DNA from: a virus
Strand: one strand, 5' to 3'
Length of the DNA stretch: 64,000 bases
Virus genome (UHGV): UHGV-0277313
Shown here: positions 29,438 through 63,006 of the stretch, piece by piece
Layout: the number at the start of each line of letters is the position of its first letter
How positions within the stretch are numbered: position 1 is the first letter of the stretch
The notes under the pieces: generated by a model
Told to the model about the DNA's origin: nothing
Database searches by the model: none
Seen by the model: only the letters and a program-made list of their open reading frames with translations
Program-made: the position numbers and the translations under genes

Positions 29438-30202
29438 ATGATTTTTGCTGATACAGAAACAACTGATTTGACTGAACCAAAAGTCTGTTCAATCGCAATG
29501 ATTAAAGTTGATCAGTTTGGGAGCATTGTTGATACTTTGTATGAAATGATAAACCCTGAAAAAGAAGTATCATTAAATGCAAGTCAGGTTAATGGTTTTT
29601 CTTTAGAATTATTACAATCATATAAAACATTTCGTGAATTGGCTGATAAAATCATTAATTTCGTTGGTGATGAAGTTGTTGTTTTCCATAATGCAGATTT
29701 TGATATGAGTGTATTAAATAAAGAATTTACTGAATGTGGTAAAAATGTTGATTGGAAAATTATTGATACGTTACGTTTATCTTGTGATATCTTAAATAGT
29801 AAACATAAATATGTCAAACATAATTTAAATGCTTTAACTGAATATTATAATTTGTCGAATTTACGTGATGACAAACATGATGCTTTAATAGATACAAAAA
29901 TGTTGAAAGAAATCTATTGTTGTTTGATGAAAGATTATAAAGAAATTAAAAACACAAAAGATTTTTGGACACAGAGAGGTCTAGTTGAATTAGCACATTA
30001 CCCTAAATCAAAAGTGTGTATTGGAGGAATGTGTTATAAAACATGTGATCCTAATAGAACACGTGAATATTGGCGTGGTTATGTTTGGTTAAATTCAGGT
30101 GATGTTGTTGAGCCTATATATACAAACAAAATAACATTTAATACACGTGATGGAAAAATGACTTTTGATTTAGCATCTATTTCTATTTTGAAAATAAAAT
30201 AG
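29438..30202 (+). CDS. DEDD-family 3'-5' exonuclease (DnaQ-like)
   Basis: Exo I MIFADTETTDL, Exo II VVFHNADFDMSVL, Exo III HDALIDTKML; extra ~90 aa Cys-containing C-terminal region. Confidence 0.7.
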   Translation: MIFADTETTDLTEPKVCSIAMIKVDQFGSIVDTLYEMINPEKEVSLNASQVNGFSLELLQSYKTFRELADKIINFVGDEVVVFHNADFDMSVLNKEFTECGKNVDWKIIDTLRLSCDILNSKHKYVKHNLNALTEYYNLSNLRDDKHDALIDTKMLKEIYCCLMKDYKEIKNTKDFWTQRGLVELAHYPKSKVCIGGMCYKTCDPNRTREYWRGYVWLNSGDVVEPIYTNKITFNTRDGKMTFDLASISILKIK

Positions 30203-31419: not shown

Positions 31420-31863
31420 ATGAGAATTTTTGTTGTTCCAAGAAAGTATATCAAAATGTTTATGCATACAGATATGTTTTTTAAACATAATAACTTTATC
31501 AGTATTGGTGAAGTTGCAGGTTATGAAGGAGTACCTGTTAATACTGAAAATGTTTTAAAACTTGTGTTCGACGATATGTCAGATAAAGAAACAGTTGGAA
31601 CATTGTTTACCGAAGAACATGCCATTCAAATTAAAAACTTTGTTGATCGTATTGATAAAAGTAAAACTTTGTATGTTAACTGTTTCGCAGGTATATCAAG
31701 AAGCGGTGCAGTTGGTACGGTGATTAACGATTATGTCAACTGTTATCTTAACGGGTTGAAAAAGAATGAAGATTGGTATTCATTCTTTGACGATAATAAA
31801 CAAATCAAACCAAATGCTTATATTATGAGGGTTATGAATAAAACGTTTGGATTGACATATTAA
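31420..31863 (+). CDS. dual-specificity/tyrosine phosphatase-like protein (CX5R motif)
   Basis: VNCFAGISRSGAVG = C-x5-R P-loop; SD ttaggaga upstream; promoter TTGACA at 31363. Confidence 0.55.
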   Translation: MRIFVVPRKYIKMFMHTDMFFKHNNFISIGEVAGYEGVPVNTENVLKLVFDDMSDKETVGTLFTEEHAIQIKNFVDRIDKSKTLYVNCFAGISRSGAVGTVINDYVNCYLNGLKKNEDWYSFFDDNKQIKPNAYIMRVMNKTFGLTY

Positions 31864-32161: not shown

Positions 32162-32905
32162 TTATCCTGTTGATTTCATGTATGTAAAATCAAGAATTAC
32201 ACAACCAACTATTCCGTTTGTATATGCTGCGCCGTAGCTAGGTTGAAAACCCCCTGCTCCATAGCCTGTAGTTGTATCATCATATGCACTAGGTGTTGGC
32301 GCAAACACACTGACTGAACCATATGGAACGGTATAGCCATTTTTATTTAAACTGTTACCTCCTGTTGCTGTACCACCATTTGCTGCATGGCCGTTGTCAT
32401 ACCAACCGCTCATTCCACCTTGACCGCCTGTTGCTTGCATGTTAATATTTGTTCCAACACAGCTAGAAGTACCACCATCAGCACCTTTATGACCACCCGC
32501 TGAAGTAGGCCCGCCAGCTGCTGCACCTGCGGCGCACGCTCCAGCTTTACCAACAATACAAGTTAAACTCTGAAGACTTAAATCTTTTGCTGCTGTGCCA
32601 GTAAAGACGCTTTTACATACAGCGCCACTGCCACCTGAACGACCACACCATTTATTACCGTGATAGAATGTGCTTTCACCGCTACCACCACCGCCGCCGA
32701 CGACCGTAATTGTTAACGACAATAATTCTTTAGGTAAAGTAAAGCTATACGTTCCAGCAACGTTAAATGTTTTGTTTTCAGTTGTTTGAACTTTAGTAAC
32801 ATAAACCAGCTGTTTACCTTTGTAGACTCTCCTAATATTTTTATTATCAGAAGATATTTTTGTTAAATTTTTATTAGACTTTTTTATTGTCATCATTCTT
32901 CTCAC
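32162..32905 (-). CDS. glycine-rich structural protein (VVGGGG-motif family)
   Basis: 247 aa; RRVYKGKQLVYVTK...LTITVVGGGGGSG then Gly/Ala-rich body. Confidence 0.6.
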   Translation of the reverse strand: MRRMMTIKKSNKNLTKISSDNKNIRRVYKGKQLVYVTKVQTTENKTFNVAGTYSFTLPKELLSLTITVVGGGGGSGESTFYHGNKWCGRSGGSGAVCKSVFTGTAAKDLSLQSLTCIVGKAGACAAGAAAGGPTSAGGHKGADGGTSSCVGTNINMQATGGQGGMSGWYDNGHAANGGTATGGNSLNKNGYTVPYGSVSVFAPTPSAYDDTTTGYGAGGFQPSYGAAYTNGIVGCVILDFTYMKSTG

Positions 32906-33560: not shown

Positions 33561-34754
33561 ATGATTCGCAGTTCAGCATTGACGTTAAAATTTGCAACAA
33601 GCAAAAAGCTGAACACCTTGGATTTGGTGTTTGACGAGTATGTCCGTGTTGTGAATTTGTATATTGATGCCTTGAGCCAATCAAAAGAACTGCCTAAATT
33701 CATCAATTTCAAAGTGGATACTTGGATTTCTGTTCAGCTCCAGCAAGTAGCTGGCAAACAAGCAGTGGAAATAATAAAATCTACCAGAAAGAAAGATCGA
33801 GAGATTAGATTGAAGAAATACAAGAAAACCTACAAGTATTTCTTAAATAAACAACGACAAAAGAAATTCATTAGCACGAAATTCAGCGAATTGAGATTGA
33901 ATTACAAAATAAAACCAAGGTATGATGGGAAAGTAATTCCGTTTGATCAACGCCAGTTTTCTTTATGTAAGTCAAATAATTCGTTTGACTTCTGGGTTCA
34001 TTTGCGTTGCCTTGGTAATAAATTTATTTTGGATTTGCCTTTGAAAAATCACAAGCACAATAAACAGTTTATAGATTGGAAACGAGTGGGTTCTTGTAGG
34101 TTGCTTAGAAACAATGGGAAATACAAAATTGAGTTGATTTATGAAAAAGAAGCTCCTAAATTAGCTAAACCAACAAAAATACTTGCAATAGATGCAGGAA
34201 TTAATTGCTTGATGTCTTGCTCAGATGGACGACAGCTTGGTTTAGAACTGAAGAAATTACTCAATGAATTGAATCAGAAACAACAGAAATCTAAATCATA
34301 CACTCGTAAATTGAACCAAATACATAACTATGTCCGTTGGTGCGTGAACCAGCTAAATTGGGGTAATTTATCTGATTTGGTGATTGAAAATCTGAAATAC
34401 ATTCAGATTGATACGAAGAAGCGAGTTAATAAAGTAACTTGTAAGTTGCTTTCCAAATGGAATTTGGGTTTATGGCGTAAAGCCATAGAACAAAAATGTG
34501 AAGAAAACTGTGTTTATTTGCATTATGTTAATCCCAAAGACACAAGCAGAACTTGTCCTAAATGCGGAAGCATTGACAAGGAAAACAGAAACGGTGAATT
34601 ATTTCATTGCATAAATTGTGGCTATGAAGCAAATGCTGACCTCAATGCAGCAATGAATATACTCACCCGGTTTTATCAGGAGAAACCTTTGCAGGTTGAT
34701 ATAGTCCTTGATTCTGCGAAAACTAATTTTAGTGATTTCATTAATTTTCATTAA
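33561..34754 (+). mobile_element. tnpB: TnpB (IS200/IS605 OrfB family RNA-guided RuvC nuclease), second copy
   Basis: RuvC-I ILAIDAGINCLMSCSDG; zinc finger CPKCGS...CINCGYEANADLNAAMNIL; 397 aa. Confidence 0.75.
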
Positions 34755-34797
34755 AATTGGTAACTATTGTAATTCCAATAACGAATTGAGGTTTAAT

Positions 34798-35706
34798 ATG
34801 ACATTTAATGACTTTTTGAAAATTAATGAAATCAAGGCATTGTTTAATTGCCCTGAAAATCTGATCTATCACCCTGAAGGCAATACAGGTGGTCATGTTG
34901 TCAAAGCATTAGAATGGTTAAATGCCAATTGCCCTTCTGAATACAAACACGATTGTTATATTGCAACATTGCTTCATGATATAGGAAAACCTTTAACGGA
35001 AAAGGAAAAGTTTCCTAAACATCCTAAACATGATGTATTGGGTGCTGAATTTATTACAAACAATTCAAATTTTCGTAAGGCTGTAGAGGATATTTACGGT
35101 GTTGTTGATTGGAAATTTGTCGAAAATGTTTGCCGTTATCACATGGTTTTTTGGCATTTTAAAGATAGAAATAAACGTGCATCTAGCTTTTTAACTTTAT
35201 TAGAAGATGTAGGCTATAAAAATATTGATAAATTTTTATGGTGTGTATTCGCTGATAATTGTAGTAATGACAATGTGAATGATAAAAGCTATGTAACATT
35301 GTTTCAGTTGTGTAAAGACTTGTTTAAAGACTTGAAAAACATGTGCGACAAAGTCATAGAACCTAGTCATAAATATAAACAATGGAAGAATATGTATTGG
35401 GAAACTAAAGTGCGAGTCTGTTCGGATGTTGTTAATACATTTAATAAAGAATCCAAAATTGTTGTGTTTGATGATTTGGTTCAATCTTTCATGAATATGC
35501 TAAAGAAAAAAGAAGGCAGTCAAATTAGCAATGATTCTGTTTCAATAAACAAAGAAAATTCGACATTATGGTTTAATGTTAACAATGTAAATTATGTTAT
35601 TGAAGTTTTTGATTTGCAAAAATGTAATTGTCGAGTCATTGCACCTGATTTATTTGAATTTAGATTTAGCACAGATTTCAACGTTTGGTTTGTTCGATTT
35701 AAATAA
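34798..35706 (+). CDS. HD-domain phosphohydrolase
   Basis: GHVVKALEW ... CYIATLLHDIGKP (H...HD motif); ATG at 34798 with SD gaggt; ORF track start 34708 overlaps tnpB. Confidence 0.55.
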   Translation: MTFNDFLKINEIKALFNCPENLIYHPEGNTGGHVVKALEWLNANCPSEYKHDCYIATLLHDIGKPLTEKEKFPKHPKHDVLGAEFITNNSNFRKAVEDIYGVVDWKFVENVCRYHMVFWHFKDRNKRASSFLTLLEDVGYKNIDKFLWCVFADNCSNDNVNDKSYVTLFQLCKDLFKDLKNMCDKVIEPSHKYKQWKNMYWETKVRVCSDVVNTFNKESKIVVFDDLVQSFMNMLKKKEGSQISNDSVSINKENSTLWFNVNNVNYVIEVFDLQKCNCRVIAPDLFEFRFSTDFNVWFVRFK

Positions 35707-42904: not shown

Positions 42905-43570
42905 ATGTTTGATCAAAATACAGTAATTCATTTTGAAAATGAAAACAAAGATGAAATTAAAAAGACGTTAGATGAATTGTTTTCATATGAAGAGACATTA
43001 GAAGATAATTCCAATGTAAAACTTGACCTTAAAGGTAAAAGTCTTGATACAATTGCTTTTGTTTTGAAAGAAGCTTTGAACAATTCAGAATTGAAAAACG
43101 TTCAATTGTTAACTAATGTCCTTTGTTTATTGAAATCATATTTTACATTTGATTCTAGCTTTTTTGAATCAGAAGACATTTATGTTAATAAATCTGTTGA
43201 ATTAATTGATTTGAAACGTCGTTTGAAAAGTGATATTGATAAAGTATCACGTCAGGTAGCTATCTATTTTCTGTCAATTTGTCGGTCTTTGAACAAGGTT
43301 GAATACACAATGCTTGATTCATATCGGCCGTTGCCAAACCTTTATCATACAATATTTTTAACGACTGATATGGTTACTATCAGCAGCATTTTATGTGACG
43401 TTAAAGATGGTTCTTTTTCTGAATGTTCATTAGTTCGTGATGCTAATTTGTATTTCAATTCAATCATGAGTAAGTACAGAATTGGGAATGAAATGATGAA
43501 TGAATTTTTAAGACCAATCTTAAAACAATTCCAAAAAGAAGACGGTGCTAAAAATGAAAAAGCTGATTAA
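42905..43570 (+). CDS. hypothetical protein
   Basis: 221 aa ORF. Confidence 0.55.
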   Translation: MFDQNTVIHFENENKDEIKKTLDELFSYEETLEDNSNVKLDLKGKSLDTIAFVLKEALNNSELKNVQLLTNVLCLLKSYFTFDSSFFESEDIYVNKSVELIDLKRRLKSDIDKVSRQVAIYFLSICRSLNKVEYTMLDSYRPLPNLYHTIFLTTDMVTISSILCDVKDGSFSECSLVRDANLYFNSIMSKYRIGNEMMNEFLRPILKQFQKEDGAKNEKAD

Positions 43571-44210
43571 ATATAGTGAATTAATTGAATACGCATTAAC
43601 ATACATTGCATCAGTGTGTGAGAATATTGATGGGATGAAACCTTCTATTCCTGATGATGTTAAAAATGGTTATACACGTGTTTTAGCGAACAACGGCAAA
43701 CATTCAATTACAATGGTAGTATCAGATGGAACCGTTGCTCAAGTAGCATCTTCAACTGTTCGTTCTGAATTAACAAGCTTTCTATCAACACAAGGTGTTT
43801 ATTCTAAAGCTGGAACTTTGATTAATGCTAAAGGTGTGCTTAATTTCTTCAATTATTTAGCATCTTTTATCAGTGGTCATGTGTTTACAGTTGTGAATAA
43901 TGTGTCAGGAAATAAATGCTGTGTGTATAAAGCAGGGAATGTTTCTGTGTCAGGGGTTTCGAGATTGTCAGAAGAAATAGATTCAGATCCTGAACGTCAT
44001 AATGTAATCTTTACAGCAACACATAATGAAAACAATCTTGCATCTCTGACAGAAGCACTAAAAAATGTAACTAGTGTAAAAAGTATTAATACGTTAATTA
44101 ATTACGCTTGCTCATCGTCTTCGTCATCATCAAGTTCATCTTGTAGTTGTTCAAGTAGTTCAAGTTGTTGCAGCTCGTCTTCTTCGTATATTGTCTATAT
44201 GATGATTTAA
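43552..44210 (+). CDS. hypothetical protein with Ser/Cys-rich low-complexity C-terminal tail
   Basis: ends ...ACSSSSSSSSSSCSCSSSSSCCSSSSSYIVYMMI; paralogous core to 44223-44783. Confidence 0.5.
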
Positions 44211-44222
44211 AGGTTTACAATA

Positions 44223-44783
44223 ATGGATATTACGTACAGCAATATTACGACAACAATGCTGAACAAACTGATTGCGATGTGTGATAATATCAATCGTTTT
44301 GGTTCTATTGACGCTTGCTTTAAAGCAGGATTTGAAACTGTTGTAAATGTTAATCATACATATAACGCACCTGGTGCCGGTGGAAGAGTTGAATATGTAC
44401 CTATTTCTAAATACAGTTTAACTGGCAATGCAATTCCGCAACAGTCAGCGGCAAATTTGACAAATGACTATAATGCATTTATTGCAAAATTAGGTTTAAA
44501 TTTAAATGAAAAATGTACCGTAAATGGTATGTTTTATTTGTTAGAAAACATTACTGAATTTGCTAAATGTAATATCTTTTTTGCAACAAGTATTTACACA
44601 GGAAATAAGTGGGTAGTTTATATTCCTTCAAATGAATCTGTACGTATACATGATATGTCTGAATTATCTGATGATATTGCTCGTGAAAACCCTGTTGTAA
44701 AAATCATTGAAGAATATGTTTCAGGTATTCGTAATCGCATCAGGGCATACCCTGCGATTTATACGTATATTATTGTTCAATAA
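44223..44783 (+). CDS. hypothetical protein (paralog of previous, no poly-Ser tail)
   Basis: 186 aa; shared GNKxxVY..SNESV..SELSDDI blocks. Confidence 0.5.
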   Translation: MDITYSNITTTMLNKLIAMCDNINRFGSIDACFKAGFETVVNVNHTYNAPGAGGRVEYVPISKYSLTGNAIPQQSAANLTNDYNAFIAKLGLNLNEKCTVNGMFYLLENITEFAKCNIFFATSIYTGNKWVVYIPSNESVRIHDMSELSDDIARENPVVKIIEEYVSGIRNRIRAYPAIYTYIIVQ

Positions 44784-44793
44784 GGAAATTTCG

Positions 44794-45432
44794 ATGAAAA
44801 AGTTTAATTTAAAATTAGGTAATAACATTTGTCCTTTTTGTGGTAGTGAATTAACATATAATGACGAATATAAAATTGTTTACTGTAAGATATGTAAAGA
44901 AAAAGGTCATGCAGTACAATTTAAATATAAAGATGATCCACAAGAAGCATTTGATTATGCAAACACAAGAAACGGTGAAAATGAACTGTTGGAAAAACTT
45001 CAGGATTTGTATGCATATCTTAAACAATTAGGTATTGAAGGTCAAAATCTTGAAGATATTTCAGTTGCATCAGAAGGTGAATTGCCAAACAACGGTTGGA
45101 TTATTACTGAAGAAGCTGTTGCCTTGCCTTGCGAAGAACCTCATGATGTAATGTATTCACATTTGGTTACAGATAAATCTATCAATTTGTCTGATCGTCA
45201 AGCTGTTTGTAATTCTTTGCATTGTATTAATGTGACATACGTCATGAAAGTCCTTGACATTTATATTCCAAAAAGATATAATGCTAAACAGAAAGAAGTT
45301 TTAACGAAGGTTTGTTCAAAGTATCCAAAAGATACCAAAATTGAAGTTGAGTATTTGACAGATGCTAAAGGAAAACAGTTCGAAACTTTTGATGGAATAA
45401 GTGACTTTTTACTATTTTTGGATACGATCTAA
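44794..45432 (+). CDS. zinc-ribbon protein
   Basis: N-terminal CPFCGS...YCKICK (CxxC-x17-CxxC); ATG at 44794 with SD aaggaaa; heads the radical-SAM array. Confidence 0.5.
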   Translation: MKKFNLKLGNNICPFCGSELTYNDEYKIVYCKICKEKGHAVQFKYKDDPQEAFDYANTRNGENELLEKLQDLYAYLKQLGIEGQNLEDISVASEGELPNNGWIITEEAVALPCEEPHDVMYSHLVTDKSINLSDRQAVCNSLHCINVTYVMKVLDIYIPKRYNAKQKEVLTKVCSKYPKDTKIEVEYLTDAKGKQFETFDGISDFLLFLDTI

Positions 45433-46295
45433 TGAACATTAAACCAATTACGGAATTTCTTCTTTGGGATAATTGCAATAATAATTGTAAATTTTGTTTT
45501 CAACGTAAGAATCCGCGATTGTTTTCATTAGATGGTCAAAAACAAATTCTTGATAATGTATTAAGTTTTCTTAATTCAGACGATTATATAAAAGGAAGTC
45601 ATGTACTTGTTGTTGGCGGTGAGCTTTTCGACCGTGAACGCGAGTTCATGCTTCCTTTTTTTGAACAGATTATAGAAAAAATGTTATCTGATGATATAGA
45701 TATTCTATATCTGAATACGAATTTAATTTATGATGCAACATATTCGACGATGCTTAAACCTGTTTTAAAATTATTTGATGCAAATAATTTATTTGACAGG
45801 TTAAAGTTTACAACATCTTTTGATATTGCAGGAAGGTTTAAGACCAAACAGGCACGATCATTAGTATTAAGCAACCTTTTACTGCTAAAGGAAGATTTTC
45901 CAAAATTGCGAACTGTTGTTAATATAATTTTAACAAAACAGTTTTGTGAAAGTGTCATTTATGAAAAGTTTGAAATCTTTCATTTTATGGAATCTTTTGG
46001 AGTTAATACAAATCTAATTCCGTATATTGTTTTAGATAAAGAATTGTGCGCCGATCGGGAAACTATCTTTGCCGCTTTACGAAAGATTAATGAACAACAT
46101 CCAGAATATATCAGACAATACGTAGATAATATGGATTTGCGACATAAACGTTATTTGTATGCTTGTTACCCTGAACATTTACAATTATGTAGTTGTGAAG
46201 ATTCAGAATGTGGTCATTCAATAAACTTTAAGAAATATAGTGATGATCCAGAAGCTTGTTTTGTATGTGATTTAAAAAAAGAGTTTGATCAATGA
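45432..46295 (+). CDS. radical SAM enzyme, paralog 1 (QueE/activase-like) with C-terminal Cys-rich tail
   Basis: WDNCNNNCKFC (CxxxCxxC), VVGGELFD SAM-binding GGE; tail CEDSECGHS...CFVCD. Confidence 0.7.
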   Translation: MNIKPITEFLLWDNCNNNCKFCFQRKNPRLFSLDGQKQILDNVLSFLNSDDYIKGSHVLVVGGELFDREREFMLPFFEQIIEKMLSDDIDILYLNTNLIYDATYSTMLKPVLKLFDANNLFDRLKFTTSFDIAGRFKTKQARSLVLSNLLLLKEDFPKLRTVVNIILTKQFCESVIYEKFEIFHFMESFGVNTNLIPYIVLDKELCADRETIFAALRKINEQHPEYIRQYVDNMDLRHKRYLYACYPEHLQLCSCEDSECGHSINFKKYSDDPEACFVCDLKKEFDQ

Positions 46296-47248
46296 CTAAA
46301 GTAAATACTAATGTTGTAGATTGTGGAGAACATCGATTCTTGCAATTCAATCTATGGAAAGATTGTAATAATAATTGTGAATTTTGTTTTTATCGTGGCC
46401 ACAAATTATTATCAAATGAAAAGAAAATTTCATCAATTAATTTTGTTAAAGAAAGATTATTAGATTTTGAAGAGTCTGATTTCTATAATGAAATTGGTTT
46501 CATTGGCGGTGAGTTCTTTGATAATCAAATTGAAAATGAGTCTGTTAAAAAAGCTTTTTATGGATTGTTCGATATCCTAAAAGATAAACGTGAACGTGGA
46601 AAGCTTGATCGTATTTACATTACAACAAACTTAATATTCGATTCACATAAATTATTGCGGCCATTTCTTGACTATTTAAAAGAATTGAACCTTTTAGATA
46701 TCACATTATTATGCACATCGTATGATTTAAAATACAGATTTCATAATGAAAAAGCATTGCAGTATTGGCAAGATAATATGATTAATTTGTCAAAAGATTA
46801 CAATACAATGATTCATACAGAAATTATTGTAACGCAAGCTTTTATTGATGCTGTCATGAGTGGTTCATTTGACATCGAAGATTTCTGTGATAAATATAAT
46901 ACACGAATCGATTATATCGAACCTTCTTCAGGTTTCTATTTCTATGATAAAAAGGAATGCGAGAAAGAAGTTAAAGACTTTTTCCCTAAACGTGAGGATT
47001 TCTTAAACTTTATTAGATATACCGCAATTGATAATAATTGGATTGATTTAACAAAATTCTTGTCAATGCGAATCAGATCAGATACGTTGTACTGTCATTT
47101 AAAAGGTCAATGGAGAAAGCTGGAAGGTCGTAGGTCACAATATATATGCCCGACTTTAGGATTGTATGACGTAACGTATGAGAATGGTTATTGTGATTCG
47201 ACAGAATCAATGGTCGATGATGTAAATGCATTTTTAGGGAGTGTATGA
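46292..47248 (+). CDS. radical SAM enzyme, paralog 2
   Basis: WKDCNNNCEFC, FIGGEFFD; divergent C-terminus lacking ECGHS. Confidence 0.7.
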   Translation: MTKVNTNVVDCGEHRFLQFNLWKDCNNNCEFCFYRGHKLLSNEKKISSINFVKERLLDFEESDFYNEIGFIGGEFFDNQIENESVKKAFYGLFDILKDKRERGKLDRIYITTNLIFDSHKLLRPFLDYLKELNLLDITLLCTSYDLKYRFHNEKALQYWQDNMINLSKDYNTMIHTEIIVTQAFIDAVMSGSFDIEDFCDKYNTRIDYIEPSSGFYFYDKKECEKEVKDFFPKREDFLNFIRYTAIDNNWIDLTKFLSMRIRSDTLYCHLKGQWRKLEGRRSQYICPTLGLYDVTYENGYCDSTESMVDDVNAFLGSV

Positions 47249-48180
47249 TGGGGAAAATGGTTCAATATTCGATGTGGTCAAATTGCAGTAATCATTGTGA
47301 TTTTTGTTTAATTCGTGATCATCATCATTATACAAAAAAAGAACAGATTGCGAATATACGTAGAATTCGTGAGAATATAAAACATGTTGACTGGCAGAAT
47401 GAATTTTCATACGGAATTTCTTTATTAGGTGGTGAGCTTTATTTTATTACTGATAAAGAAGTGCAAGATGAATTTATGTTGTTAATTGATGATATCATTG
47501 AAAATATCTTGTTAAAAGTGGATAATAAATTCTGCCGATATTCATCTGTTACTAACGGTTTATATGAGCCTTCTTTCCTGTTTCGCGTAATTGATGAAAT
47601 AAAAAATAGAGCAGGTATTGAAAAAGTTGACATTAACTTTTCATATGATTTGAAATATCGTTATCATTCAGAAGCTAGAAGAAAATTGGCTTTGGAAAAT
47701 ATTAACAAATTTCATGACAGATATGATTATAGAGTTGGCGTACAAATGATTGTTACACAACATTTGATTAATTTGTGTAAATCAGGTGAATTTAATGTAG
47801 CAGAATTTGTTGAAAAAGAAATTCCTGGATGTGTATTGTCTTTATTATACCCGCACCCTGTTCAAACTGGTAATGTATTGCCGGATTTCTTTTTTACACG
47901 CGATGACCTGTTTTGGTTCGTTAATTATTTAAGAGAGAATTGTTTGGATACATATTATAATTTCCTATACAGTACAAAAAATTCTGGTACGTTTAAATAT
48001 ACAGGTTTTCTTGACAGATCGTCTAAAGGTATGAAACAATTGGATCAGCAGCCAACATTGTCTGATGGTAAAGAAGAATTAAGTGAATGTGGTCATTCTG
48101 TTTTGTATAAATGCTATTCAGATAGTGATGAATGTATGTTATGTGACTTGGAATTATTAGAAGCGGATATTAATTCATGA
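47245..48180 (+). CDS. radical SAM enzyme, paralog 3
   Basis: WSNCSNHCDFC, LLGGELYF; tail SECGHSVLYKCYSDSDECMLCD. Confidence 0.7.
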   Translation: MMGKMVQYSMWSNCSNHCDFCLIRDHHHYTKKEQIANIRRIRENIKHVDWQNEFSYGISLLGGELYFITDKEVQDEFMLLIDDIIENILLKVDNKFCRYSSVTNGLYEPSFLFRVIDEIKNRAGIEKVDINFSYDLKYRYHSEARRKLALENINKFHDRYDYRVGVQMIVTQHLINLCKSGEFNVAEFVEKEIPGCVLSLLYPHPVQTGNVLPDFFFTRDDLFWFVNYLRENCLDTYYNFLYSTKNSGTFKYTGFLDRSSKGMKQLDQQPTLSDGKEELSECGHSVLYKCYSDSDECMLCDLELLEADINS

Positions 48181-49157
48181 ATAAAGAAAATGATAACAGA
48201 CAAGAATGTCAATTTGAAGTTTGGACTGAATGCAATTCTAAATGTGTGTTTTGTTATTTAAGTACAAATAACATTAAAACATTAGATGAAATTAAAATAA
48301 AACAGATGAATGAAATCATCGATAGCATGAAAGCCGATGACTTTTGTGAAAAGTTTAATAAAGTTGCATTCATTGGCGGTGAATTTTATCAAGGTCAACT
48401 ATCAAATCCTGAAGTCAAGTCTAAATTTATGGAAATGATGGATGTTGCAGCAGATTTACTAAACAGTGGTAAAATTACTGAAGTTTGGACTTGTGCAACT
48501 TTAACAATTGGTGATCAGAAGGATATGTATGAAGTCTTGAAGAAATTCAATGACATATCAAGAGTTTGGGTGTTGACATCATACGATACTATAGGAAGAT
48601 TTCATACACCTAAAATGAAACAGACGTGGCTTGATAACATGCAGAAGTTACGTGACACATACAAAGATATTAAGATTAACATTACATCAATCTTAACTGG
48701 TGATTTTATTGATAAATATCTTGAAGGAACTTTAGATTTATGGGAAATTGCTAATCAGTATAATGCAGCAATTTTCTTAAAACCAGCATGCCCTATTGAT
48801 AGAAACGAAAAGTCACAATACACTAAAGAAGAAACCAATCAAATTATACCAAACTTTTTCCCAACACGTGACAAATTTATTGAGTTTCTATATAAATTTA
48901 AAATGAATGAGCCTGAATTCATGTATGATAAATTATTCAACATGAAATATAGAAGCGATTATTTATATCGTTTTGAAGAAGGTGAAATGCATTGTTCGCA
49001 TCGAGTAAAAGAAACACAGCAAGAGTTTTATGATAAACAAATAGCTGATAATGTTGTTAATAAATGCGGACATAGTTCACAATATCAAATATATCTTGAT
49101 AGTGATGAATGTGCTGTTTGTGATAAAGAAATGATTAAGGAAATGGTGAATGATTGA
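48177..49157 (+). CDS. radical SAM enzyme, paralog 4
   Basis: WTECNSKCVFC, FIGGEFYQ; tail NKCGHSSQYQIYLDSDECAVCD. Confidence 0.7.
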   Translation: MNKENDNRQECQFEVWTECNSKCVFCYLSTNNIKTLDEIKIKQMNEIIDSMKADDFCEKFNKVAFIGGEFYQGQLSNPEVKSKFMEMMDVAADLLNSGKITEVWTCATLTIGDQKDMYEVLKKFNDISRVWVLTSYDTIGRFHTPKMKQTWLDNMQKLRDTYKDIKINITSILTGDFIDKYLEGTLDLWEIANQYNAAIFLKPACPIDRNEKSQYTKEETNQIIPNFFPTRDKFIEFLYKFKMNEPEFMYDKLFNMKYRSDYLYRFEEGEMHCSHRVKETQQEFYDKQIADNVVNKCGHSSQYQIYLDSDECAVCDKEMIKEMVND

Positions 49158-50088
49158 GTCTATTCTAGAAAAAGTATCTTTTAACAATGCCGAATTTGCA
49201 TTTTATAAAGAGTCACTTAAAAGTTACAATGCAAAAGAAATCATGTCTGAACATGATTATGAATCAGTTGATAAAGCATTGAAAGAATTTCTTCCTTGCA
49301 AAATTAATGACGATTATCATTTTACATTTTCAACAACCGCAACTGATTTAATTAAACAGTTATTTAAAAAGTATGTTGATGATGACACATTGGTTTTGAC
49401 AACAAATAGTGAACATCCTAAAGTTCAGGAAATTTTAAAGAAATGCAAAAACGTAGTTAAAGCTTTTGATAAAGAAAGTTTACAACAGTTTACAGTTGAT
49501 AATAAATATAAACGCGTTTTTATTTATATGATTGGGACAATGTGTGCAACAGGCCACATTGTTTATGATCAGGAGTTTGAATCAATCATTGAACGTGCAA
49601 AAGCTTCAGGTAAAGAAGTCATTACAGTCATTGATGCAGTTCAAGAACTATTCCTATTACACCGTGATTATAACAAATTCGATTATATTATTGGTACAGC
49701 ACATGCCTTAATTCCTGAATATAATGTTGGTTTAATGTTGTCAAAAGACACATCAGTTGGAAAACATTTGATGATTGCGCAACCTTTTGTAACGATGTTA
49801 AAATGGCTTTTAAAGCGCAAAGAATACCTATATCAATTCAGTACTTTTATGAGTATGGAATTTGGCAATACCCGTAATACACAATTCTATCATGATTTTG
49901 GTATCAGTCATCTATTCTTTATTAAAACCAGAAATGGTGAATTTAATCAGATGCAAGAAGAAGATACTGTAAAAGATAATATCGACAATGTTGGTGTATT
50001 ATTTAGAGGTTGTTGGTCTGTTGTAGATCGTGAAACTTTTGATAATCTTTTACAAACAACAAAATTCATTGTTGAAGGGAATATCTAA
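49150..50088 (+). CDS. cysteine desulfurase-like (aminotransferase class V fold) protein, paralog 2
   Basis: LVLTTNSEHPKVQEILKKCKNV; VIDAVQELFLLHRDYNKFDYIIGTAHAL. Confidence 0.5.
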   Translation: MIESILEKVSFNNAEFAFYKESLKSYNAKEIMSEHDYESVDKALKEFLPCKINDDYHFTFSTTATDLIKQLFKKYVDDDTLVLTTNSEHPKVQEILKKCKNVVKAFDKESLQQFTVDNKYKRVFIYMIGTMCATGHIVYDQEFESIIERAKASGKEVITVIDAVQELFLLHRDYNKFDYIIGTAHALIPEYNVGLMLSKDTSVGKHLMIAQPFVTMLKWLLKRKEYLYQFSTFMSMEFGNTRNTQFYHDFGISHLFFIKTRNGEFNQMQEEDTVKDNIDNVGVLFRGCWSVVDRETFDNLLQTTKFIVEGNI

Positions 50089-51047
50089 TGAAATTAATTA
50101 CTAATTGGTTGAATAGTTTTGATTATTCAAAAAATGAATTAGAACAATTGGCAAGAATACGGATATCCGATGATATCATTATAGATAACTTTGATGAAGA
50201 AAAAGTTCGAACTTTTTCAATGATACCGTTTGATAGCTTTAAATATAATCATCTGACTGTTGATACATGTGCAACAAATATCATTAATAATTTATTTGAT
50301 AAATATGTTGATGACGATACTTTGGTTATTACAACAGGAAGTGAACATCATTCTGTTAGAAACAATCTAAACAAATGCCAAAATGTTGTTAATTTTGTTT
50401 GTCGTGGGGAAATCCGTCAAGATATAGATATAATTAACACAATAAAACCTTTTAAAAAAGTATTCATTTATATGATTGCTTTAAGTGTCGGCGACCCACA
50501 TTATCTTAACAATTGTATTGTGGAGCAATTACAAAACATTCTAAAAGAAAACAATAAACAATTCGTTACTGTATTAGATGCTGTACAAGAATTGTTTTTA
50601 TTACCACGAGATTATTCAATCTATGATTATGTTGTAGGCACTTCACATGCGTTAATACCGAATTATGATATGGGAATGTTATTCGGTAAAGAAGAGCTTT
50701 CATATAAAGCGGGAAATTGGTTGAAAGATTTTAACGATTGTCTGGAAATTCTTTTAAGAAACCGCGACAAATTATATCAATTGAACGTTGTAATGCGTCA
50801 ACACTTTGCCAAATATACATGTTTCGATAAAGATTTAATTGATTCAAGTCGTGCACCGTATGTTTATAATTTGTGTGATTATAAAAAACGTTTAGACGGT
50901 TTAAACGATGTCGATTACGAACGAGGAGCAGTAGCTCCTGGTGATTACACACCTGTTACTTTTAGGGCATGCCCGTTTTTAGCACATCAAGAAAAGTTCC
51001 TTGATAGAATACAAACGATTGATAATATCCTTGAATCAGATATGTGA
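50088..51047 (+). CDS. cysteine desulfurase-like (aminotransferase class V fold) protein, paralog 3
   Basis: DTCATNIINNLFDKYVDDDTLVITTGSEHHSV; VLDAVQELFLLPRDYSIYDYVVGTSHAL; very close to 27581-28540. Confidence 0.5.
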   Translation: MKLITNWLNSFDYSKNELEQLARIRISDDIIIDNFDEEKVRTFSMIPFDSFKYNHLTVDTCATNIINNLFDKYVDDDTLVITTGSEHHSVRNNLNKCQNVVNFVCRGEIRQDIDIINTIKPFKKVFIYMIALSVGDPHYLNNCIVEQLQNILKENNKQFVTVLDAVQELFLLPRDYSIYDYVVGTSHALIPNYDMGMLFGKEELSYKAGNWLKDFNDCLEILLRNRDKLYQLNVVMRQHFAKYTCFDKDLIDSSRAPYVYNLCDYKKRLDGLNDVDYERGAVAPGDYTPVTFRACPFLAHQEKFLDRIQTIDNILESDM

Positions 51048-51051
51048 AGAT

Positions 51052-51090
51052 AAAGGCTGGAAACTAAATCCAGCCTTTATATTTATTGAA
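51052..51090. terminator. bidirectional rho-independent terminator
   Basis: aaaggctgga-aactaaa-tccagccttt + T/A-rich flank, between convergent genes. Confidence 0.65.
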
Positions 51091-51775
51091 TTGCTTTATC
51101 TATATTGACAACACGTTGTTGTTGATCCATTGTACGATAAAGTTGTTTGTCAAACCAATCTAAACCTTCAGGTGTGTTCGGAACAATTATAAATTTTAAA
51201 TCATCTTTAAAACGTATCGAGTTGTCTTCGATAAAAGGTTTGAACATATCTTTCACACAAATGAATTTCCAATTATTCAAGACATATTTGCGTAATTCAG
51301 AATAAATTCCGAAAGCGTCAAGGTGATCTAAACGAAGAAGAGTGTCATTAATTTTGTCATAATCTTCTTCAGTAATTGTTGACATTGAACAACCGCAAAC
51401 AATTTGTGATTGTTTTGTTTTATCAAAACTTAATTGATTAACTGTTAAAATAACTAAATGAGTTTTATCAAAAAATATACGCATTTTCACAAAACTAAAA
51501 ACACCTTTTTCTGACACATCATTTTTAGAATGAAAAGAAAATTCTTTGATATCTTCTAGATTCCATTGAGAGCCATCAACATATGGCGAAATGTAACCAA
51601 AATCTTCTTTTGCATACTTTAGATGTTTTTCTTCTAAAGGTTGTTCGTAACTATCTTCCATGTATTCAAGAAAGGTTTCAATAAACGTCTTTTTCATAAA
51701 AATCACCTTCATATTCTTATATAAAATAAAGAACGAACAGTGAAAGTCTAACACATATTTAAGACACAAAAACAC
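51083..51775 (-). CDS. hypothetical protein
   Basis: 230 aa minus-strand ORF. Confidence 0.5.
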   Translation of the reverse strand: MFLCLKYVLDFHCSFFILYKNMKVIFMKKTFIETFLEYMEDSYEQPLEEKHLKYAKEDFGYISPYVDGSQWNLEDIKEFSFHSKNDVSEKGVFSFVKMRIFFDKTHLVILTVNQLSFDKTKQSQIVCGCSMSTITEEDYDKINDTLLRLDHLDAFGIYSELRKYVLNNWKFICVKDMFKPFIEDNSIRFKDDLKFIIVPNTPEGLDWFDKQLYRTMDQQQRVVNIDKAIQ

Positions 51776-51851: not shown

Positions 51852-52469
51852 TTATATTGCAATTATTTTTACATAGCCACCTATAGCAGGAAACGAAGCA
51901 TTATTTTGTCCTGCATTGTTATTCCCTGAAGCGCCAGGACCTGTTATTGTTCCATCATATGTTGAAACTGTACGTGTTGAACCAGGCGTATTCCAAGAAT
52001 CATAAATAGCAAACCATTTACCATTTACAGGTGTTGCATTACTTATTATTTGAAAATTTGTCCATAGATTAGTATCGAAACCGCCTGTTGAATACCCAAT
52101 AGCTTTTGTACCATCACCAACTTTTCCAGAGTTAAAGGCAGCGCCTACTTGGGATAAATCACCTTGTGGGGAAATAAAAATATTGGACGAATAATCCGGC
52201 AACGTTCCAACACCAGAAGCCACACCGGTATTTGTCGGTGCAGCAATATTTCCATAACTAAAATTTGAGTTATCACCACCATTACCAACAACTATATACA
52301 GTTTTTGCCCTGCATGTTTAGGTTTTATTCGTATAATTCCACAACCTGAACCACTTGCCGTTGATCTTGACCAATAGAGCTTATAACGTTTATCTGTATG
52401 TTTGTTTAACTTGTTTGTACGATTATGTCTTTTTGGTTTATTATCAATAAAGTTACTGATATTTATCAT
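51852..52469 (-). CDS. glycine-rich structural protein (VVGNGG motif)
   Basis: 205 aa; YIVVGNGGDNS then Gly/Ser/Thr-rich body. Confidence 0.5.
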   Translation of the reverse strand: MINISNFIDNKPKRHNRTNKLNKHTDKRYKLYWSRSTASGSGCGIIRIKPKHAGQKLYIVVGNGGDNSNFSYGNIAAPTNTGVASGVGTLPDYSSNIFISPQGDLSQVGAAFNSGKVGDGTKAIGYSTGGFDTNLWTNFQIISNATPVNGKWFAIYDSWNTPGSTRTVSTYDGTITGPGASGNNNAGQNNASFPAIGGYVKIIAI

Positions 52470-52957: not shown

Positions 52958-53596
52958 ATGTCAATCAATAATCAAGGTCGAAAAATAAAAGTAATTTATA
53001 AAGGTTCAACAAAGTTTGGACGTGTTTATAAAGGTGAACAGATAATTTTTGGAACAAAGTTTCATGATGTAAAAACTTTTACAGCGTCCGGAAGTTTTAT
53101 CTTTCCAAACAGACTGATTTCATTGACTATTACAGTTGTTGGTGGCGGTGGTGCATCTGGTGGTTGGTCAAATGATAGGCACGGTTGGTACACACCAAAA
53201 CCTGGTCAAAACGGCGGAAAAGCTATACATTCACTGTCTAATGCAATTGATTATTCAAATAAAACTGTAACGTTTATTGTTGGTGATGGTGGAAAAGCTG
53301 GTGCTCAAGCCTGGTCTGGAAAATTTAACGGGTTTTATGCTTCTACCAAAGGCGGCGACAGTTCAGTTCCATTGTTTAATTTGGTTGCGACAGGTGGTTA
53401 TCAAGGGTGGACTGCAGGAAACCCTCAATCTACTGATAACCAACCTGGTACGGCATCTGGTGGCAATACGTTCAATGGTGTTTCAACAGATGCATATCCT
53501 GCAAATGGTGGTGGCGCCCCAATTTCTTCATCGGTTGGTGCTGGCATTAATGGTGTTGTCGGTAAAGTAGTTTTTGATTATTACTATTGGAAATAA
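52958..53596 (+). CDS. glycine-rich structural protein (VVGGGG-motif family)
   Basis: 212 aa; KVIYKGSTKFGRVYKGEQIIFG...LTITVVGGGGASGG. Confidence 0.6.
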   Translation: MSINNQGRKIKVIYKGSTKFGRVYKGEQIIFGTKFHDVKTFTASGSFIFPNRLISLTITVVGGGGASGGWSNDRHGWYTPKPGQNGGKAIHSLSNAIDYSNKTVTFIVGDGGKAGAQAWSGKFNGFYASTKGGDSSVPLFNLVATGGYQGWTAGNPQSTDNQPGTASGGNTFNGVSTDAYPANGGGAPISSSVGAGINGVVGKVVFDYYYWK

Positions 53597-58920: not shown

Positions 58921-58959
58921 AGGCCAGTAGTTAAATTAATTGCTGGTCTTTATTTTTTT
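58921..58959. terminator. bidirectional terminator
   Basis: aggccagtag...ctggtctt hairpin + ttattttttt. Confidence 0.5.
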
Positions 58960-59599
58960 ATATTGTTCTAATCTCGACCCAACCAGACTGTCCTGTTGCA
59001 CCAACGATTGTTGTGGATTGGTTTGTCCCACTCCCACCAGCACCTGGCCCTGTTAATGTTCCATCAACAAGTGAATAACCCCCGTGACCTCCAGCAACCC
59101 AACCGTCACCATTGTTACCTACCGAATTTCTGATTATTCGATAAAACGATCCTTGAACTGTAGCTGCAGCTCCCCCAGCACCATGCCCAATACCACCATT
59201 TCGTTGGCTATCACCACCGCCTCCTCCTGAAATTGACACAAGACCAGATATAGATGAGCCACCACCATTTTGTGCCCATACGTTTCTATTTCCACCAGCA
59301 CTTCCAGCTCCAATGACAATTGACAATACAGTGTTTTTAATTAATTTTATATCACCAATAAATAAACCACTACTACCACCAGATGCAGTTGCTCCACCTC
59401 CACCACCACCAACAACAGTGATACGATAGTTTTGTGATGTTGGGATTGTAAATGAATAGGTTCCTGAATTACGTATAGAAAATAAAACGGTATTTACAGG
59501 AAGAATTTGAAACATTAATGAAGAAGCATGATAAACTTTTCCAATATTTCGACTACCTTTAATGGTGCAAATCAATTTATTTCCTTTATATATTGGCAT
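58958..59599 (-). CDS. glycine-rich structural protein (VVGGGG-motif family)
   Basis: 213 aa; MPIYKGNKL...KVYHASSLMF...RITVVGGGGGGATASGG. Confidence 0.6.
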   Translation of the reverse strand: MPIYKGNKLICTIKGSRNIGKVYHASSLMFQILPVNTVLFSIRNSGTYSFTIPTSQNYRITVVGGGGGGATASGGSSGLFIGDIKLIKNTVLSIVIGAGSAGGNRNVWAQNGGGSSISGLVSISGGGGGDSQRNGGIGHGAGGAAATVQGSFYRIIRNSVGNNGDGWVAGGHGGYSLVDGTLTGPGAGGSGTNQSTTIVGATGQSGWVEIRTI

Positions 59600-61692: not shown

Positions 61693-63006
61693 TCAACATT
61701 CTAAACTATTATAAATTTTATATAAATTTACAAAAGATTTAGATGACTTGAGTCTAAAAACTTCAGATTTAAACAAACCCAAAGAACGTCTGTATTTCAC
61801 TCCAGATGTTTTTGCTATATCAAAGAGTTCTTTCCAAGAACTATAAACCCAGCTTGCTGATTCCTTCCATAGGTTGAACAAACTTTCAGCTTTTATAAGT
61901 TCTGGATAAAACCGACCTTTGATATAACGGAAATTCGCACGACGTGCAATTTCCAAACTTGCTGCTATCGGGTCTGGTGCTTCGTTAAGCACATTCCCAA
62001 TGAATGAAGAATAAACTGGATTGACTTCTATGAAGTCTATTTTGTTAAGCAAGCATAGTTTCTTTAAAGCAGAAACCAAGCTATCTCTTTTCCATTTATT
62101 CTTCGTTAATCTATTGAATGATTTACCTTTTCCTGAATTACCAATTTTGAAATTCAAATCTTCAATGCCAAATTTACCAACATGGAAAAATTTGCATTTT
62201 TTGATTATATCTTTCGCAATCTCTTTAAGCTCAAAGATTTGCTTGTTGTTTTGGTGCTTAGAGTCTTTATGAGAAGAAGATTTATGAAAATTTTTGGTAA
62301 AATAGGAAAGGTCATACTGCTCTTTAAGTAATATCTTCCTCTTATCACCAGTCCATTTAGAAATAGAAAATCCAATATAATTTGGATTCATATCAATTGC
62401 GCCAATAACATTTAATTTTCCATTATAATTGGAACAATAGATTTTGAAATCATCGAAAGCAATACAGATTTTATCTAATTTTAATTCAACACTAAAATTA
62501 GATAACTTCTGCTTGACTTGCTCTTCTAAGCTGATTAGTTCATATAAGTAATTCTTATGAAAGATAGGTAACTTCAAATAGATATGTTTAGTTTTAGAAA
62601 ACTTAAAGATAATCTGGTTATTTGAGATATCCAACTTGAATTTACGATTTCCACCTTTTGGCGTTTCACCTTGAGAATAAATCCCTAAAAATCTATTTTC
62701 TTTGAAAATATTTTTATTTAACTTATGTTTTAATCTCTGAAAGAAATTAAATTTACCTCCAAATATAACATTTTCTTTATTTGCTGCAAGCAAATAACTT
62801 GCTTTCTTAATAGCACACTGAATAAACCACGAATCCGAAGGAACATTTGATAAGCTTTTAGAAAGCAATCTAATGTCTTTTTCAGATTTTTCATCTTGAA
62901 AACGGTTATATGCAAATCTTACCATATTAGACGACTTACGAATTTCATCTCTGATGAAGATTCGATCATCGTCTGAACAAGTATAAGGTAAGCTAATTGT
63001 TTTCAA
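61693..63006 (-). mobile_element. divergent TnpB/RuvC-like nuclease lacking the C-terminal zinc finger
   Basis: RuvC-I-like GAIDMNPNYIGFSI, RuvC-II-like KFGIEDLNFK, RuvC-III-like region FIGNVLNEAPDPIAASLEIARRANF; no CxxC pairs; 437 aa. Confidence 0.45.

Follow-up and report, generated by a model that had tools for sequence, protein, structure and literature searches.

Four radical-SAM genes beside a serine/cysteine-tailed protein: a candidate protein-maturation cassette of uncultured jumbo phages

What does a phage do with four consecutive, paralogous radical S-adenosylmethionine (rSAM) enzymes and a pair of pyridoxal phosphate (PLP)-fold proteins? The question is raised by a 64,000-nucleotide stretch of the virus genome UHGV-0277313 (here called the window), in which these genes follow one another on a single strand. 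A preliminary description took them for a candidate nucleic-acid hypermodification module, in which rSAM enzymes resembling QueE or activases are followed by two cysteine desulfurase-like proteins. The earlier interpretation is borne out for the gene content but not for a function in DNA hypermodification. The functional unit spans 42905–51047 and begins approximately 2.5 kb upstream of the array first described, and one of its genes encodes a protein that ends in a run of serines and cysteines. The explanation that we favour, at about even confidence, is that the cassette matures this poly-Ser/Cys C-terminal tail and constitutes an undescribed phage protein-maturation system. We favour it because the linkage between rSAM genes and tailed genes is found from both directions, the tail is under selection at the protein level, accessory enzymes accompany the cassette, tail sequence and tailoring genes co-vary, and the operon is laid out as a unit.

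If the tail is the substrate, this would be an undescribed class of rSAM protein maturation, carried by hundreds of large uncultured phages in metagenomes associated with animals, and jumbo phages would spend at least 8 kb and up to eight rSAM genes on chemically remodelling one of their own proteins. To our knowledge, no described class of RiPP (a peptide made on ribosomes and modified after translation) or of protein modification has such a substrate or such an enzyme set. Full-text literature searches did not turn up this cassette, and in public sources no cassette protein carries a name beyond "hypothetical protein". Five of the six cassette protein families lack a Pfam or PHROG match above threshold, and the sixth is a divergent rSAM family.

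The tailed protein and its linkage to radical-SAM genes

In the window, the tailed protein (Table 1) ends in ...NYA-CSSSSSSSSSSCSCSSSSSCCSSSSS-YIVYMMI. Its tailed relatives end in a run of 8–35 residues, serines with a few cysteines among them, followed by a short hydrophobic end with the consensus x-F-I-A-Y-M-x-[IL]. Serine in the window tract is encoded by TCA, TCG, TCT, AGT and AGC and cysteine by TGT and TGC; across loci all six serine codons (AGT 176, TCA 166, TCT 162, AGC 68, TCG 39 and TCC 27) and both cysteine codons are in use. Such a mixture of codons shows that the tract is selected at the protein level, and a DNA-level or trinucleotide repeat was rejected on the same grounds. The Ser/Cys-tail pattern occurs only once in a six-frame translation of the window, at 44109–44210. 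An exhaustive HMMER search with the N-domain alone gave 147 representatives of the tailed family that are mutually ≤50% identical. A Ser/Cys run of at least 8 residues is present in 87 of them, with 12 or fewer residues after the run in 81 of those 87, and most of the remaining representatives resemble the tail-less paralog encoded beside the tailed protein or are fragments. Genes of the family come in pairs, either one tailed and one tail-less or, in lineages in which the second copy is tailed, two tailed. The tailed protein is the candidate substrate. At one locus (L030, 6442–8364) a Ser/Cys tail with the end IFIAYFNI sits on an open reading frame (ORF) of 640 aa without a Pfam match, which suggests that different N-terminal bodies can bear the tail.

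Related loci were recruited through rSAM3, and the ORFs of 33 non-redundant loci were clustered. Co-occurrence in related phages, which the preliminary description had named as a check, was evident: the rSAM quartet is conserved, and its most consistent partners are the orphan family C1 (30/33 loci) and the tailed-protein family (28/33), with PLP-like proteins in 18/33. By six-frame scan a tailed ORF is present in 40 of 47 loci recruited in this way. Of the seven loci without one, five have their first rSAM gene within approximately 1.1 kb of the locus or contig edge, L043 provides only about 2.8 kb of upstream sequence, and L034 holds a lone rSAM copy. With two exceptions, the end of the tail and the nearest rSAM gene are 6–1,370 bp apart, often 6–40 bp, and the tail is almost always upstream on the same strand. 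Given that all of these loci were recruited through rSAM3, a reverse search was run from the tailed proteins. It found rSAM-family genes directly downstream of 5/5 divergent tailed proteins that had been chosen without reference to rSAMs, and C1 alongside in 4/6 loci. Gene order and copy number in the cassette vary by locus while the adjacency of tailed and rSAM genes persists, and in L017 the whole unit (tailed protein, paralog, C1 and rSAMs) is duplicated as a block. The numbers of tailed and rSAM genes per locus show no obvious correlation by inspection.

A candidate substrate gene next to maturase genes is the arrangement expected of a RiPP-type system. Pfam, PHROG and NCBIfam scans covered approximately 67 window ORFs (all but a few of those of at least 120 aa) and 34 accessory families embedded in the cassettes of related loci. 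Among the cassette genes and these 34 families, Pfam and PHROG gave no RiPP recognition element (RRE; PqqD-like), leader peptidase or exporter. C1, the tailed protein, its paralog and the neighbours downstream of the cassette have no Pfam, PHROG or NCBIfam match, and the C1 and tailed-family profiles gave only chance-level matches to PDB sequences. The 155 clusters of the C1 family all lack both a Pfam domain and a name; C1 could be a cryptic RRE. The zinc-ribbon protein, correctly placed ahead of the array by the preliminary description, matches Pfam Lar_restr_allev below the cut-off (E=7e-4), and its orthologs adjoin rSAM genes in L001, L004, L006 and L018.

Further enzymes are found within the cassettes of some lineages. 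A NodU/CmcH-type carbamoyltransferase occurs in seven loci (L004, L021, L024, L027, L028, L030 and L047), mostly ones without PLP-like genes, and the two are nearly mutually exclusive, occurring together only in L004 and L039. On a 231-kb IMG/VR contig (L027), the stretch 11921–15465, between rSAM genes, encodes a DegT/DnrJ/EryC1 aminotransferase (E=4e-68), an FdtA-type 3,4-oxoisomerase (E=6.5e-47) and a family-2 glycosyltransferase (GT2; E=7e-19), which hints that the cassette target may be glycosylated in this lineage. An HD-domain protein is encoded in L001 and extra small rSAMs in L021, and four other loci have an orphan SPASM-like family. The carbamoyltransferase, DegT, FdtA, GT2 and similar genes are lineage-specific add-ons rather than core genes, and are of types that usually decorate hydroxyls or glycosylate proteins.

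The sequence of the tail varies with this gene content. The fifth residue of the tail motif is Met in 23/24 tails from loci with PLP-like genes compared with 13/31 from loci without them (Fisher p=3e-5, not phylogeny-corrected). Counted by locus the figures are 20/21 and 7/19 (p=1e-4), with some of the PLP-negative loci truncated. Tail ends likewise read ...YM... in loci with PLP-like genes versus ...YF/YQ/WY/HM... in loci with the carbamoyltransferase, again without phylogenetic correction. These patterns suggest that the tail and its putative tailoring enzymes co-vary.

The radical-SAM and lysine-less PLP-fold proteins

The four tandem rSAM paralogs of 287–326 aa were confirmed by ORFs and alignments. 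Their pairwise identities are 22–27%, with tblastn cross-hits at E 1e-10 to 1e-34. All four carry W-x2-C-[NS]-x2-C-x-F-C and GGE[LF][FY], in columns that vary neither among the four nor across a 54-sequence family alignment. The cluster cysteines C14, C18 and C21 (rSAM3 numbering) are among these invariant positions, and CxxxCxxC is found in 143/152 members from related loci that could be assigned to an orthogroup. The cysteine-rich C-terminus that had been reported for three of the four proteins closes rSAM1, rSAM3 and rSAM4 as CGHS-x(11-12)-C-x2-C-D but not rSAM2. Family-wide, the strict CGHS...CxxC form occurs in 25/32 rSAM1, 32/36 rSAM3, 13/51 rSAM4 and 0/33 rSAM2 members, and a looser Cys/His...CxxC pattern in 50/51 rSAM4 members. 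The C-terminus of rSAM3 holds four cysteines (C282, C290, C297 and C300).

The SPASM domain has the signature CX2CX5CX3C and seven cysteines. No such domain was found in the C-termini of the window rSAMs, which have only C-G-H-S-x11-12-C-x2-C, with one further cysteine in rSAM3, and no such motif in rSAM2; a one-cluster 'twitch'-like site is possible.

Each window rSAM has its own ortholog in related loci, with 33–64% identity to the matching paralog versus approximately 25% to the others (33–53% for the rSAM1 orthologs). The 33 non-redundant loci hold 159 members of the family, most loci having one gene per orthogroup. Extra copies, up to eight genes per locus, are mostly of the rSAM4 type. 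Judged by this conservation of four orthogroups as a quartet, the fourfold paralogy is ancient, and it points to four non-redundant roles, whether successive steps, different positions or parts of a hetero-oligomer. Profile searches returned more than 1,000 metagenomic relatives or database clusters, and rSAM3 orthologs account for 118 of the top 120 database matches.

Matches of the proteins to radical-SAM sequence models are weak but uniform. Pfam Radical_SAM (PF04055) matches all four, at 19.5 bits for rSAM1, 20.1 for rSAM3, 28.9 for rSAM4 and 30.5 for rSAM2, and only rSAM2 passes the gathering score of 29.5 bits. PHROG 1802 matches three of the four at E ~1e-10. NCBIfam rSAM matches are confined to the N-terminus and far below threshold; viperin is the most consistent of them (NF038283, 14.9–20.7 bits versus a cut-off of 180, covering the N-terminal ~60 residues). 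Viperins also rank first when the family profile is compared with PDB sequences (6b4c, E ~1e-3).

The AlphaFold model of rSAM3 (pLDDT 94.1, pTM 0.91) has an unambiguous radical-SAM fold as predicted, a partial TIM barrel with the GGE motif. Foldseek placed viperin-like enzymes and the peptide epimerase EpeE at the top among PDB entries (E 2e-6 to 5e-6, TM ~0.4–0.55), followed by DesII and CteB, and BlsE is also among the structural neighbours. Ranked by structural Z score, the best neighbour is anSME (15.2, 250 residues aligned), which oxidizes a protein-borne Cys or Ser, followed by ChlB (14.3), viperin (14.1), SkfB (13.9), GDGT-MAS (13.8), HemN (13.8), SuiB (13.3), CteB (12.8), PFL-AE (12.3), QueE (11.0), RlmN (10.9), SPL (9.7), MiaB (9.0) and TYW1 (8.8). 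Peptide or protein modifiers make up five of the eight best neighbours, although the Z differences are modest. For this reason the resemblance to QueE or to activases put forward in the preliminary description is not the best one: both rank below anSME, and family-model scores are below their cut-offs (activase models TIGR02491 15.6 bits versus 126 and TIGR02495 15.1 versus 131). QueE is neither a model match nor the nearest structural neighbour. An activase next to NrdD was rejected, given that sizes, model scores and neighbourhood do not fit. The window cassette contains no NrdD or PFL gene; an NrdD gene is found in L001, approximately 3.6 kb upstream of the tail-less paralog, but its association with the cassette is not conserved.

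The two proteins encoded after the quartet, PLP-like A and B, are 36% identical to each other (E=1e-47). Their family comprises 93 clusters, from metagenomes only and without a precomputed Pfam annotation. The AlphaFold model of A (pLDDT 95.6, pTM 0.92) has the fold-type I architecture, with NifS chains first in Foldseek (E=1.5e-11, TM ~0.6–0.67) and serine palmitoyltransferase, KBL and PhnW scoring nearly as well. Against PDB sequences the family profile matches a NifS-like protein of Thermotoga (E=0.003). The residues that anchor PLP in class-V enzymes (T65, E88-H89, D162, Q165, T183, H185 and R286) are invariant or nearly so in 47 diverse members, in the motifs A-T-x, E-H, D-A-V-Q, T-x-H and a C-terminal Arg. 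The residue after the invariant H185, however, is Ala in 39, Val in 4, Ser in 4 and Lys in none of the 47 members. An hhalign comparison pairs VLDAVQE...IGTAHALIPEYNVG with HVDATQS...SFSGHKIYGPKGIG of IscS, so that H185-A186 faces H205-K206; this residue-level pairing is no more reliable than the IscS sequence used, and the alignment is statistically weak, but the pairing agrees with the predicted fold. The proteins are approximately 90 residues shorter than IscS, no cysteine column exceeds 75% conservation, and a catalytic Cys loop could not be aligned. Cysteine-desulfurase models score far below their cut-offs (TIGR01979 15.8 bits versus 475, TIGR01977 16.2 versus 377 and PF00266 12.4 versus 21.5).

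The preliminary description was right that two IscS-like fold-type I paralogs directly follow the array, but on sequence grounds they are not cysteine desulfurases and would not mobilize sulfur, because the PLP lysine is missing in 47/47 members. They probably still bind a pyridoxal phosphate species, without an internal aldimine. Lysine-less fold-type I enzymes that use pyridoxamine phosphate (PMP) do exist, namely the sugar 3-dehydratases ColD and E1, but these are DegT-family members with His in place of the lysine, which makes the analogy a loose one. A natural fold-type I scaffold that has lost the Schiff-base lysine in every member examined and kept its cofactor pocket is of interest for PLP/PMP enzymology.

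L006, a locus nearly identical to the window cassette, carries an inserted 448-aa ORF (12934–14280) at exactly the junction of the two PLP-like genes, which in the window share 1 bp. This ORF has no Pfam match, shares 33% identity (E=6e-43) with the window ORF 61693–63006(-), and looks like a mobile TnpB-like element.

Tail maturation and alternative readings

If the cassette matures the tail, the arrangement would resemble that of a RiPP precursor and its maturases, but on a protein of approximately 220 aa. Each rSAM would cleave S-adenosylmethionine reductively at its CxxxCxxC-bound [4Fe-4S] cluster, and the 5'-deoxyadenosyl radical would take a hydrogen from C-alpha or C-beta of a Ser or Cys in the tract. 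By analogy with the structural neighbours, the outcome could be formylglycine-type carbonyls (anSME), thioether or ether cross-links (SkfB, CteB) or epimerization (EpeE). The C-terminal Cys3His/Cys4 motif of rSAM1, rSAM3 and rSAM4 would hold an auxiliary cluster or zinc, and the PLP-fold proteins, with PLP or PMP bound non-covalently, would act on, or merely hold, carbonyl or amine groups made on the tail. C1 and the zinc-ribbon protein may serve in recognition or as chaperones.

Any one specific chemistry on the tail is, taken singly, quite unlikely to be the right one. A broader proposal is a widespread, jumbo-phage-specific chemistry in which the rSAM quartet, sometimes with lysine-less PLP-fold proteins or a carbamoyltransferase, turns a 20–35-residue Ser/Cys tract into a new polymer or cross-linked structure. 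We regard this as possible but doubtful, and hold the same tentative view of whether the chemistry would be categorically new. Candidate products under that proposal are a poly-formylglycine, diaminopropionate, dehydroalanine-laddered, thioether-laddered or D/L-alternating tract, acting in the virion or during infection. The system offers an experimental handle, given that the candidate substrate is short and near-homopolymeric and the four paralogous rSAMs can be added singly, which would help to reveal how they divide labour.

Among described systems, the nearest in logic are those in which rSAM enzymes mature a neighbouring peptide or protein that contains Cys/Ser, as in anSME, the sactipeptide and SCIFF-type RiPPs, and HXS. 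anSME has approximately 380 aa and a full SPASM domain with two auxiliary clusters, and recognizes C/S-x-P/A-x-R. Despite being the best structural neighbour by Z score (PDB 4k36), it is only 14% identical to the phage rSAM, and the phage enzymes have approximately 290–330 aa and end in the C-G-H-S...C-x2-C tail or, for rSAM2, in none; the tailed protein lacks the C/S-x-P/A-x-R motif. The maturases of sactipeptide, ranthipeptide and SCIFF-type RiPPs (SkfB, CteB, SuiB, ChlB and EpeE) are among the top structural neighbours, and the cassette shares with these systems a precursor-like, Cys/Ser-rich gene immediately upstream. However, it differs from them in that searches of the cassette yielded neither an RRE or SPASM domain nor a peptidase or exporter, the 'precursor' of approximately 220 aa has a conserved folded N-domain and a tail-less paralog, the core is a 20–35-residue near-homopolymer of Ser, four rSAM orthogroups are conserved instead of one or two, and the genes are phage-encoded. 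Viperin and its prokaryotic homologs have a similar length (~300 aa) and provide the best profile match (NF038283; 6b4c, E=1e-3) and the best Foldseek match (E=2e-6, TM ~0.53), but the match covers mainly the N-terminal cluster and SAM region, and here there are four paralogs with a Cys-rich C-terminus. NifS, IscS and SufS share the fold (TM ~0.65) and the PLP-anchoring motifs with the PLP-like proteins, which lack the Schiff-base lysine. In HXS, a bacterial antiphage defence system with a periplasmic effector, the protein HxsA carries His-Xaa-Ser repeats that are matured by the paired rSAMs HxsB and HxsC (PMC13128918). The likeness lies in a repeat-bearing protein accompanied by paralogous rSAMs and a small accessory protein in a setting of phage–bacterium conflict (PMC13128918). 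Against this, the present cassette is phage-encoded and has four rSAMs and a poly-Ser/Cys tract without His, and the HxsC model TIGR03977 scores only 14.3 bits against a cut-off of 267.9.

The alternative that fares best, although we consider it unlikely, is that the cassette tailors small molecules or nucleotide sugars. The rSAMs would then act on nucleotides or nucleotide-sugars in the manner of viperin, DesII or BlsE, the PLP-fold proteins would be PMP-dependent, and the product would decorate, possibly by O- or S-glycosylation, the Ser/Cys tract. Ser-rich tracts are classical sites of O-glycosylation. Viperin as the best sequence-profile and Foldseek match, DesII and BlsE as structural neighbours, the DegT, FdtA and GT2 genes among the rSAM genes of L027, the carbamoyltransferase in seven loci and the HD-domain protein in L001 all fit such a scheme. 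However, neither the window cassette nor most loci contain a glycosyltransferase or sugar-nucleotide gene (sugar genes in 1/33), and the viperin model, with its cut-off of 180, reaches only 15–21 bits. Class-V-like rather than DegT-like, with NifS their best match, the PLP-like proteins have Ala, not His, at the lysine position; furthermore, four conserved rSAM orthogroups are hard to explain for a single sugar.

We consider very unlikely the function originally proposed, in which the rSAM and PLP-fold enzymes would make or modify a non-canonical base of phage DNA or phage tRNAs. The defining genes of the phage thymidine-hypermodification clusters of M6, ViI and PaMx11 are those for a 5-hydroxymethyldeoxyuridine (5-hmdU) DNA kinase and an aGPT-Pplase/amino-acid:DNA transferase, with a dUMP hydroxymethylase often close by; these clusters also have an SPL-like rSAM and a PLP enzyme that bears the lysine and is modelled on tryptophan synthase beta (PMC8989533). 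These clusters resemble the cassette in being phage-encoded and in combining rSAM with PLP-type enzymes (PMC8989533), which speaks for the proposal, as do the many tRNA and RNA functions in the window (13 tRNAs, a Pnkp-RNA ligase, a CCA-enzyme-like protein and a QueC-like PP-loop), the Lar-like zinc ribbon ahead of the array and the DNA-metabolism genes that flank the cassette in some loci. Yet the cassette has no kinase, transferase, SPL-like rSAM or lysine-bearing PLP enzyme of this kind, and the approximately 67 window ORFs and 34 embedded families contain no 5-hmdU kinase, aGPT-Pplase/amino-acid:DNA transferase or dUMP hydroxymethylase, and no TGT/DpdA, QueD or QueE. The tRNA and RNA genes are 10–35 kb away and are not conserved beside the cassette in other loci, nucleic-acid-acting rSAMs rank structurally below peptide-acting ones, and known DNA-modifying PLP enzymes keep their lysine (PMC8989533), whereas the PLP-like proteins here do not. 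The sole DNA-modification gene seen encodes an ordinary D12 Dam-type methyltransferase. A nucleic-acid hypermodification module is thus unsupported, though not disproved, and the case is a caution against annotating phage pairs of rSAM and PLP-fold genes as DNA hypermodification by default.

It is more improbable still that only synteny links the genes, with the tailed protein and C1 being virion or structural proteins and the rSAM/PLP-fold set serving metallocofactor or Fe-S assembly or a host metabolic takeover, given that order is shuffled and copy number varies and yet the tailed gene stays within approximately 1.4 kb of an rSAM gene (often 6–40 bp), that the whole unit is block-duplicated in L017, that the reciprocal search succeeded in 5/5 cases, that NifS-like proteins cannot mobilize sulfur without the PLP lysine, and that no target metalloenzyme is encoded nearby.

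Operon layout and genome context

The ORF map of the window verified the six rSAM and PLP-like ORFs, all on the + strand, and the cassette genes from C1 to PLP-like B lie on that strand, overlapping or nearly abutting (Table 1). The short overlaps noted in the preliminary description measure 4, 4, 4, 8 and 1 bp between successive ORFs from rSAM1 to PLP-like B, and the zinc-ribbon gene overlaps rSAM1 by 1 bp (TAATG). As predicted from sequence, the operon ends at a hairpin terminator, which is faced by a convergent gene at 51083–51775(-). A perfect sigma-70 consensus, TTGACA-17-TATAAT (12/12), lies inside the zinc-ribbon gene at 45254–45282(+), 150 bp upstream of rSAM1. Promoter-like sites in the region are overall no more numerous than expected from shuffling; as a lead only, this site may act as an internal promoter through which the enzymes are expressed separately from the putative substrate genes.

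Table 1 Features of the cassette in the 64,000-nucleotide window of UHGV-0277313
Feature	Position	Strand	Description
C1 protein	42905–43570	+	221 aa, acidic, orphan family
Alternative GTG start of tailed protein	43545	+	
Tailed protein	43554–44210	+	~220 aa; orphan N-domain of ~185 aa, then poly-Ser/Cys tract and hydrophobic end
Poly-Ser/Cys tract	44109–44186	+	26 codons, C-S10-C-S-C-S5-C-C-S5
C-terminal motif and stop codon	44187–44210	+	YIVYMMI; family consensus as in text
Tail-less paralog of tailed protein	44223–44783	+	186 aa; shares BLAST cluster with tailed protein
Zn-ribbon protein	44794–45432	+	212 aa; CPFC...CKIC, weakly Lar-like N-terminus, orphan C-domain
rSAM1	45432–46295	+	287 aa; orthogroup 1; C-terminal CGHS...CxxCD
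rSAM2	46292–47248	+	318 aa; orthogroup 2; without C-terminal Cys motif
rSAM3	47245–48180	+	311 aa; orthogroup 3, most conserved of the four
rSAM4	48177–49157	+	326 aa; orthogroup 4, most often amplified in other genomes
PLP-like A	49150–50088	+	312 aa; class-V-like fold-type I; Ala186 at Schiff-base Lys position
PLP-like B	50088–51047	+	319 aa; paralog of A, also without the lysine
Hairpin terminator	51050–51080	+	12-bp stem, 5 G-C pairs; directly 3' of PLP-like B

The source is most likely an uncultured jumbo phage of approximately 314 kb. L006, a 94%-identical twin of the module, lies on an IMG/VR contig of 313,762 bp, near-identical proteins are found on 310–314 kb contigs from several samples, and related contigs with the quartet measure 65–314 kb and resemble jumbo-phage genomes. 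The relatives come from bovine, water-buffalo-rumen and other metagenomes. GenBank phages gave no match to the module DNA (blastn) or to the rSAM2 protein (tblastn), and for a 10-kb stretch of the tRNA region only tRNA-Asn was matched, in two unrelated phages. In GTDB the cassette occurs only in bins of metagenome-assembled genomes (MAGs), whose taxonomy is mutually inconsistent, and several of these occurrences are single contigs of 245–283 kb. They are most likely jumbo-phage genomes mis-binned as bacteria, on which grounds a cellular origin was rejected and no host can be inferred. The MAG labels (L037–L046) are Melainabacteria, Erysipelotrichaceae, Bacilli, Succinivibrionaceae, Muribaculaceae, Bacteroides and Oribacterium.

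The window has a G+C content of approximately 30%. ARAGORN predicts 13 tRNA genes at 16237–23178, of which 8 pass the Rfam tRNA gathering score, and the D12-class Dam-type N6-adenine DNA methyltransferase (16458–17312, Pfam E=5e-62) is encoded between tRNA genes. The kinase-phosphatase-RNA ligase fusion (Pnkp-RNA ligase, 762 aa, 9103–11391) matches PHROG 8238 at E=4e-146. The CCA-adding-enzyme-like protein is encoded at 34708–35706 and an RNase T-type exonuclease at 29438–30202; the product of 28543–29400, located 16 kb from the array, matches only a QueC-type PP-loop, over 33 residues. TnpB/OrfB-type genes are located at 26400–27482 and 33561–34754.

M16 peptidases are the leader peptidases of some RiPP pathways. 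Both halves of such a peptidase (insulinase/pitrilysin; E=1e-28 and 2e-23) are encoded at 12243–13538, approximately 30 kb from the cassette, and by this analogy the enzyme could process the tailed protein; in other loci, the 10 kb around the cassette showed no such gene. Gly_rich_2 proteins occur in several copies at 24958–25614, 32162–32905(-) and 58958–59599(-), with Pfam E values of 7e-6 to 1e-9. Just downstream of the cassette, the glycine-rich ORFs 51852–52469(-) and 52958–53596 have a similar composition and no PHROG match. Tail-fibre-like proteins are also encoded in the window. Two further genes are unusual in a phage, one for an ankyrin-repeat protein at 6141–7043(-) (E=3e-38) and a small ORF at 31420–31863 with a sub-threshold match to dual-specificity phosphatases (24.2 versus 33.5 bits).

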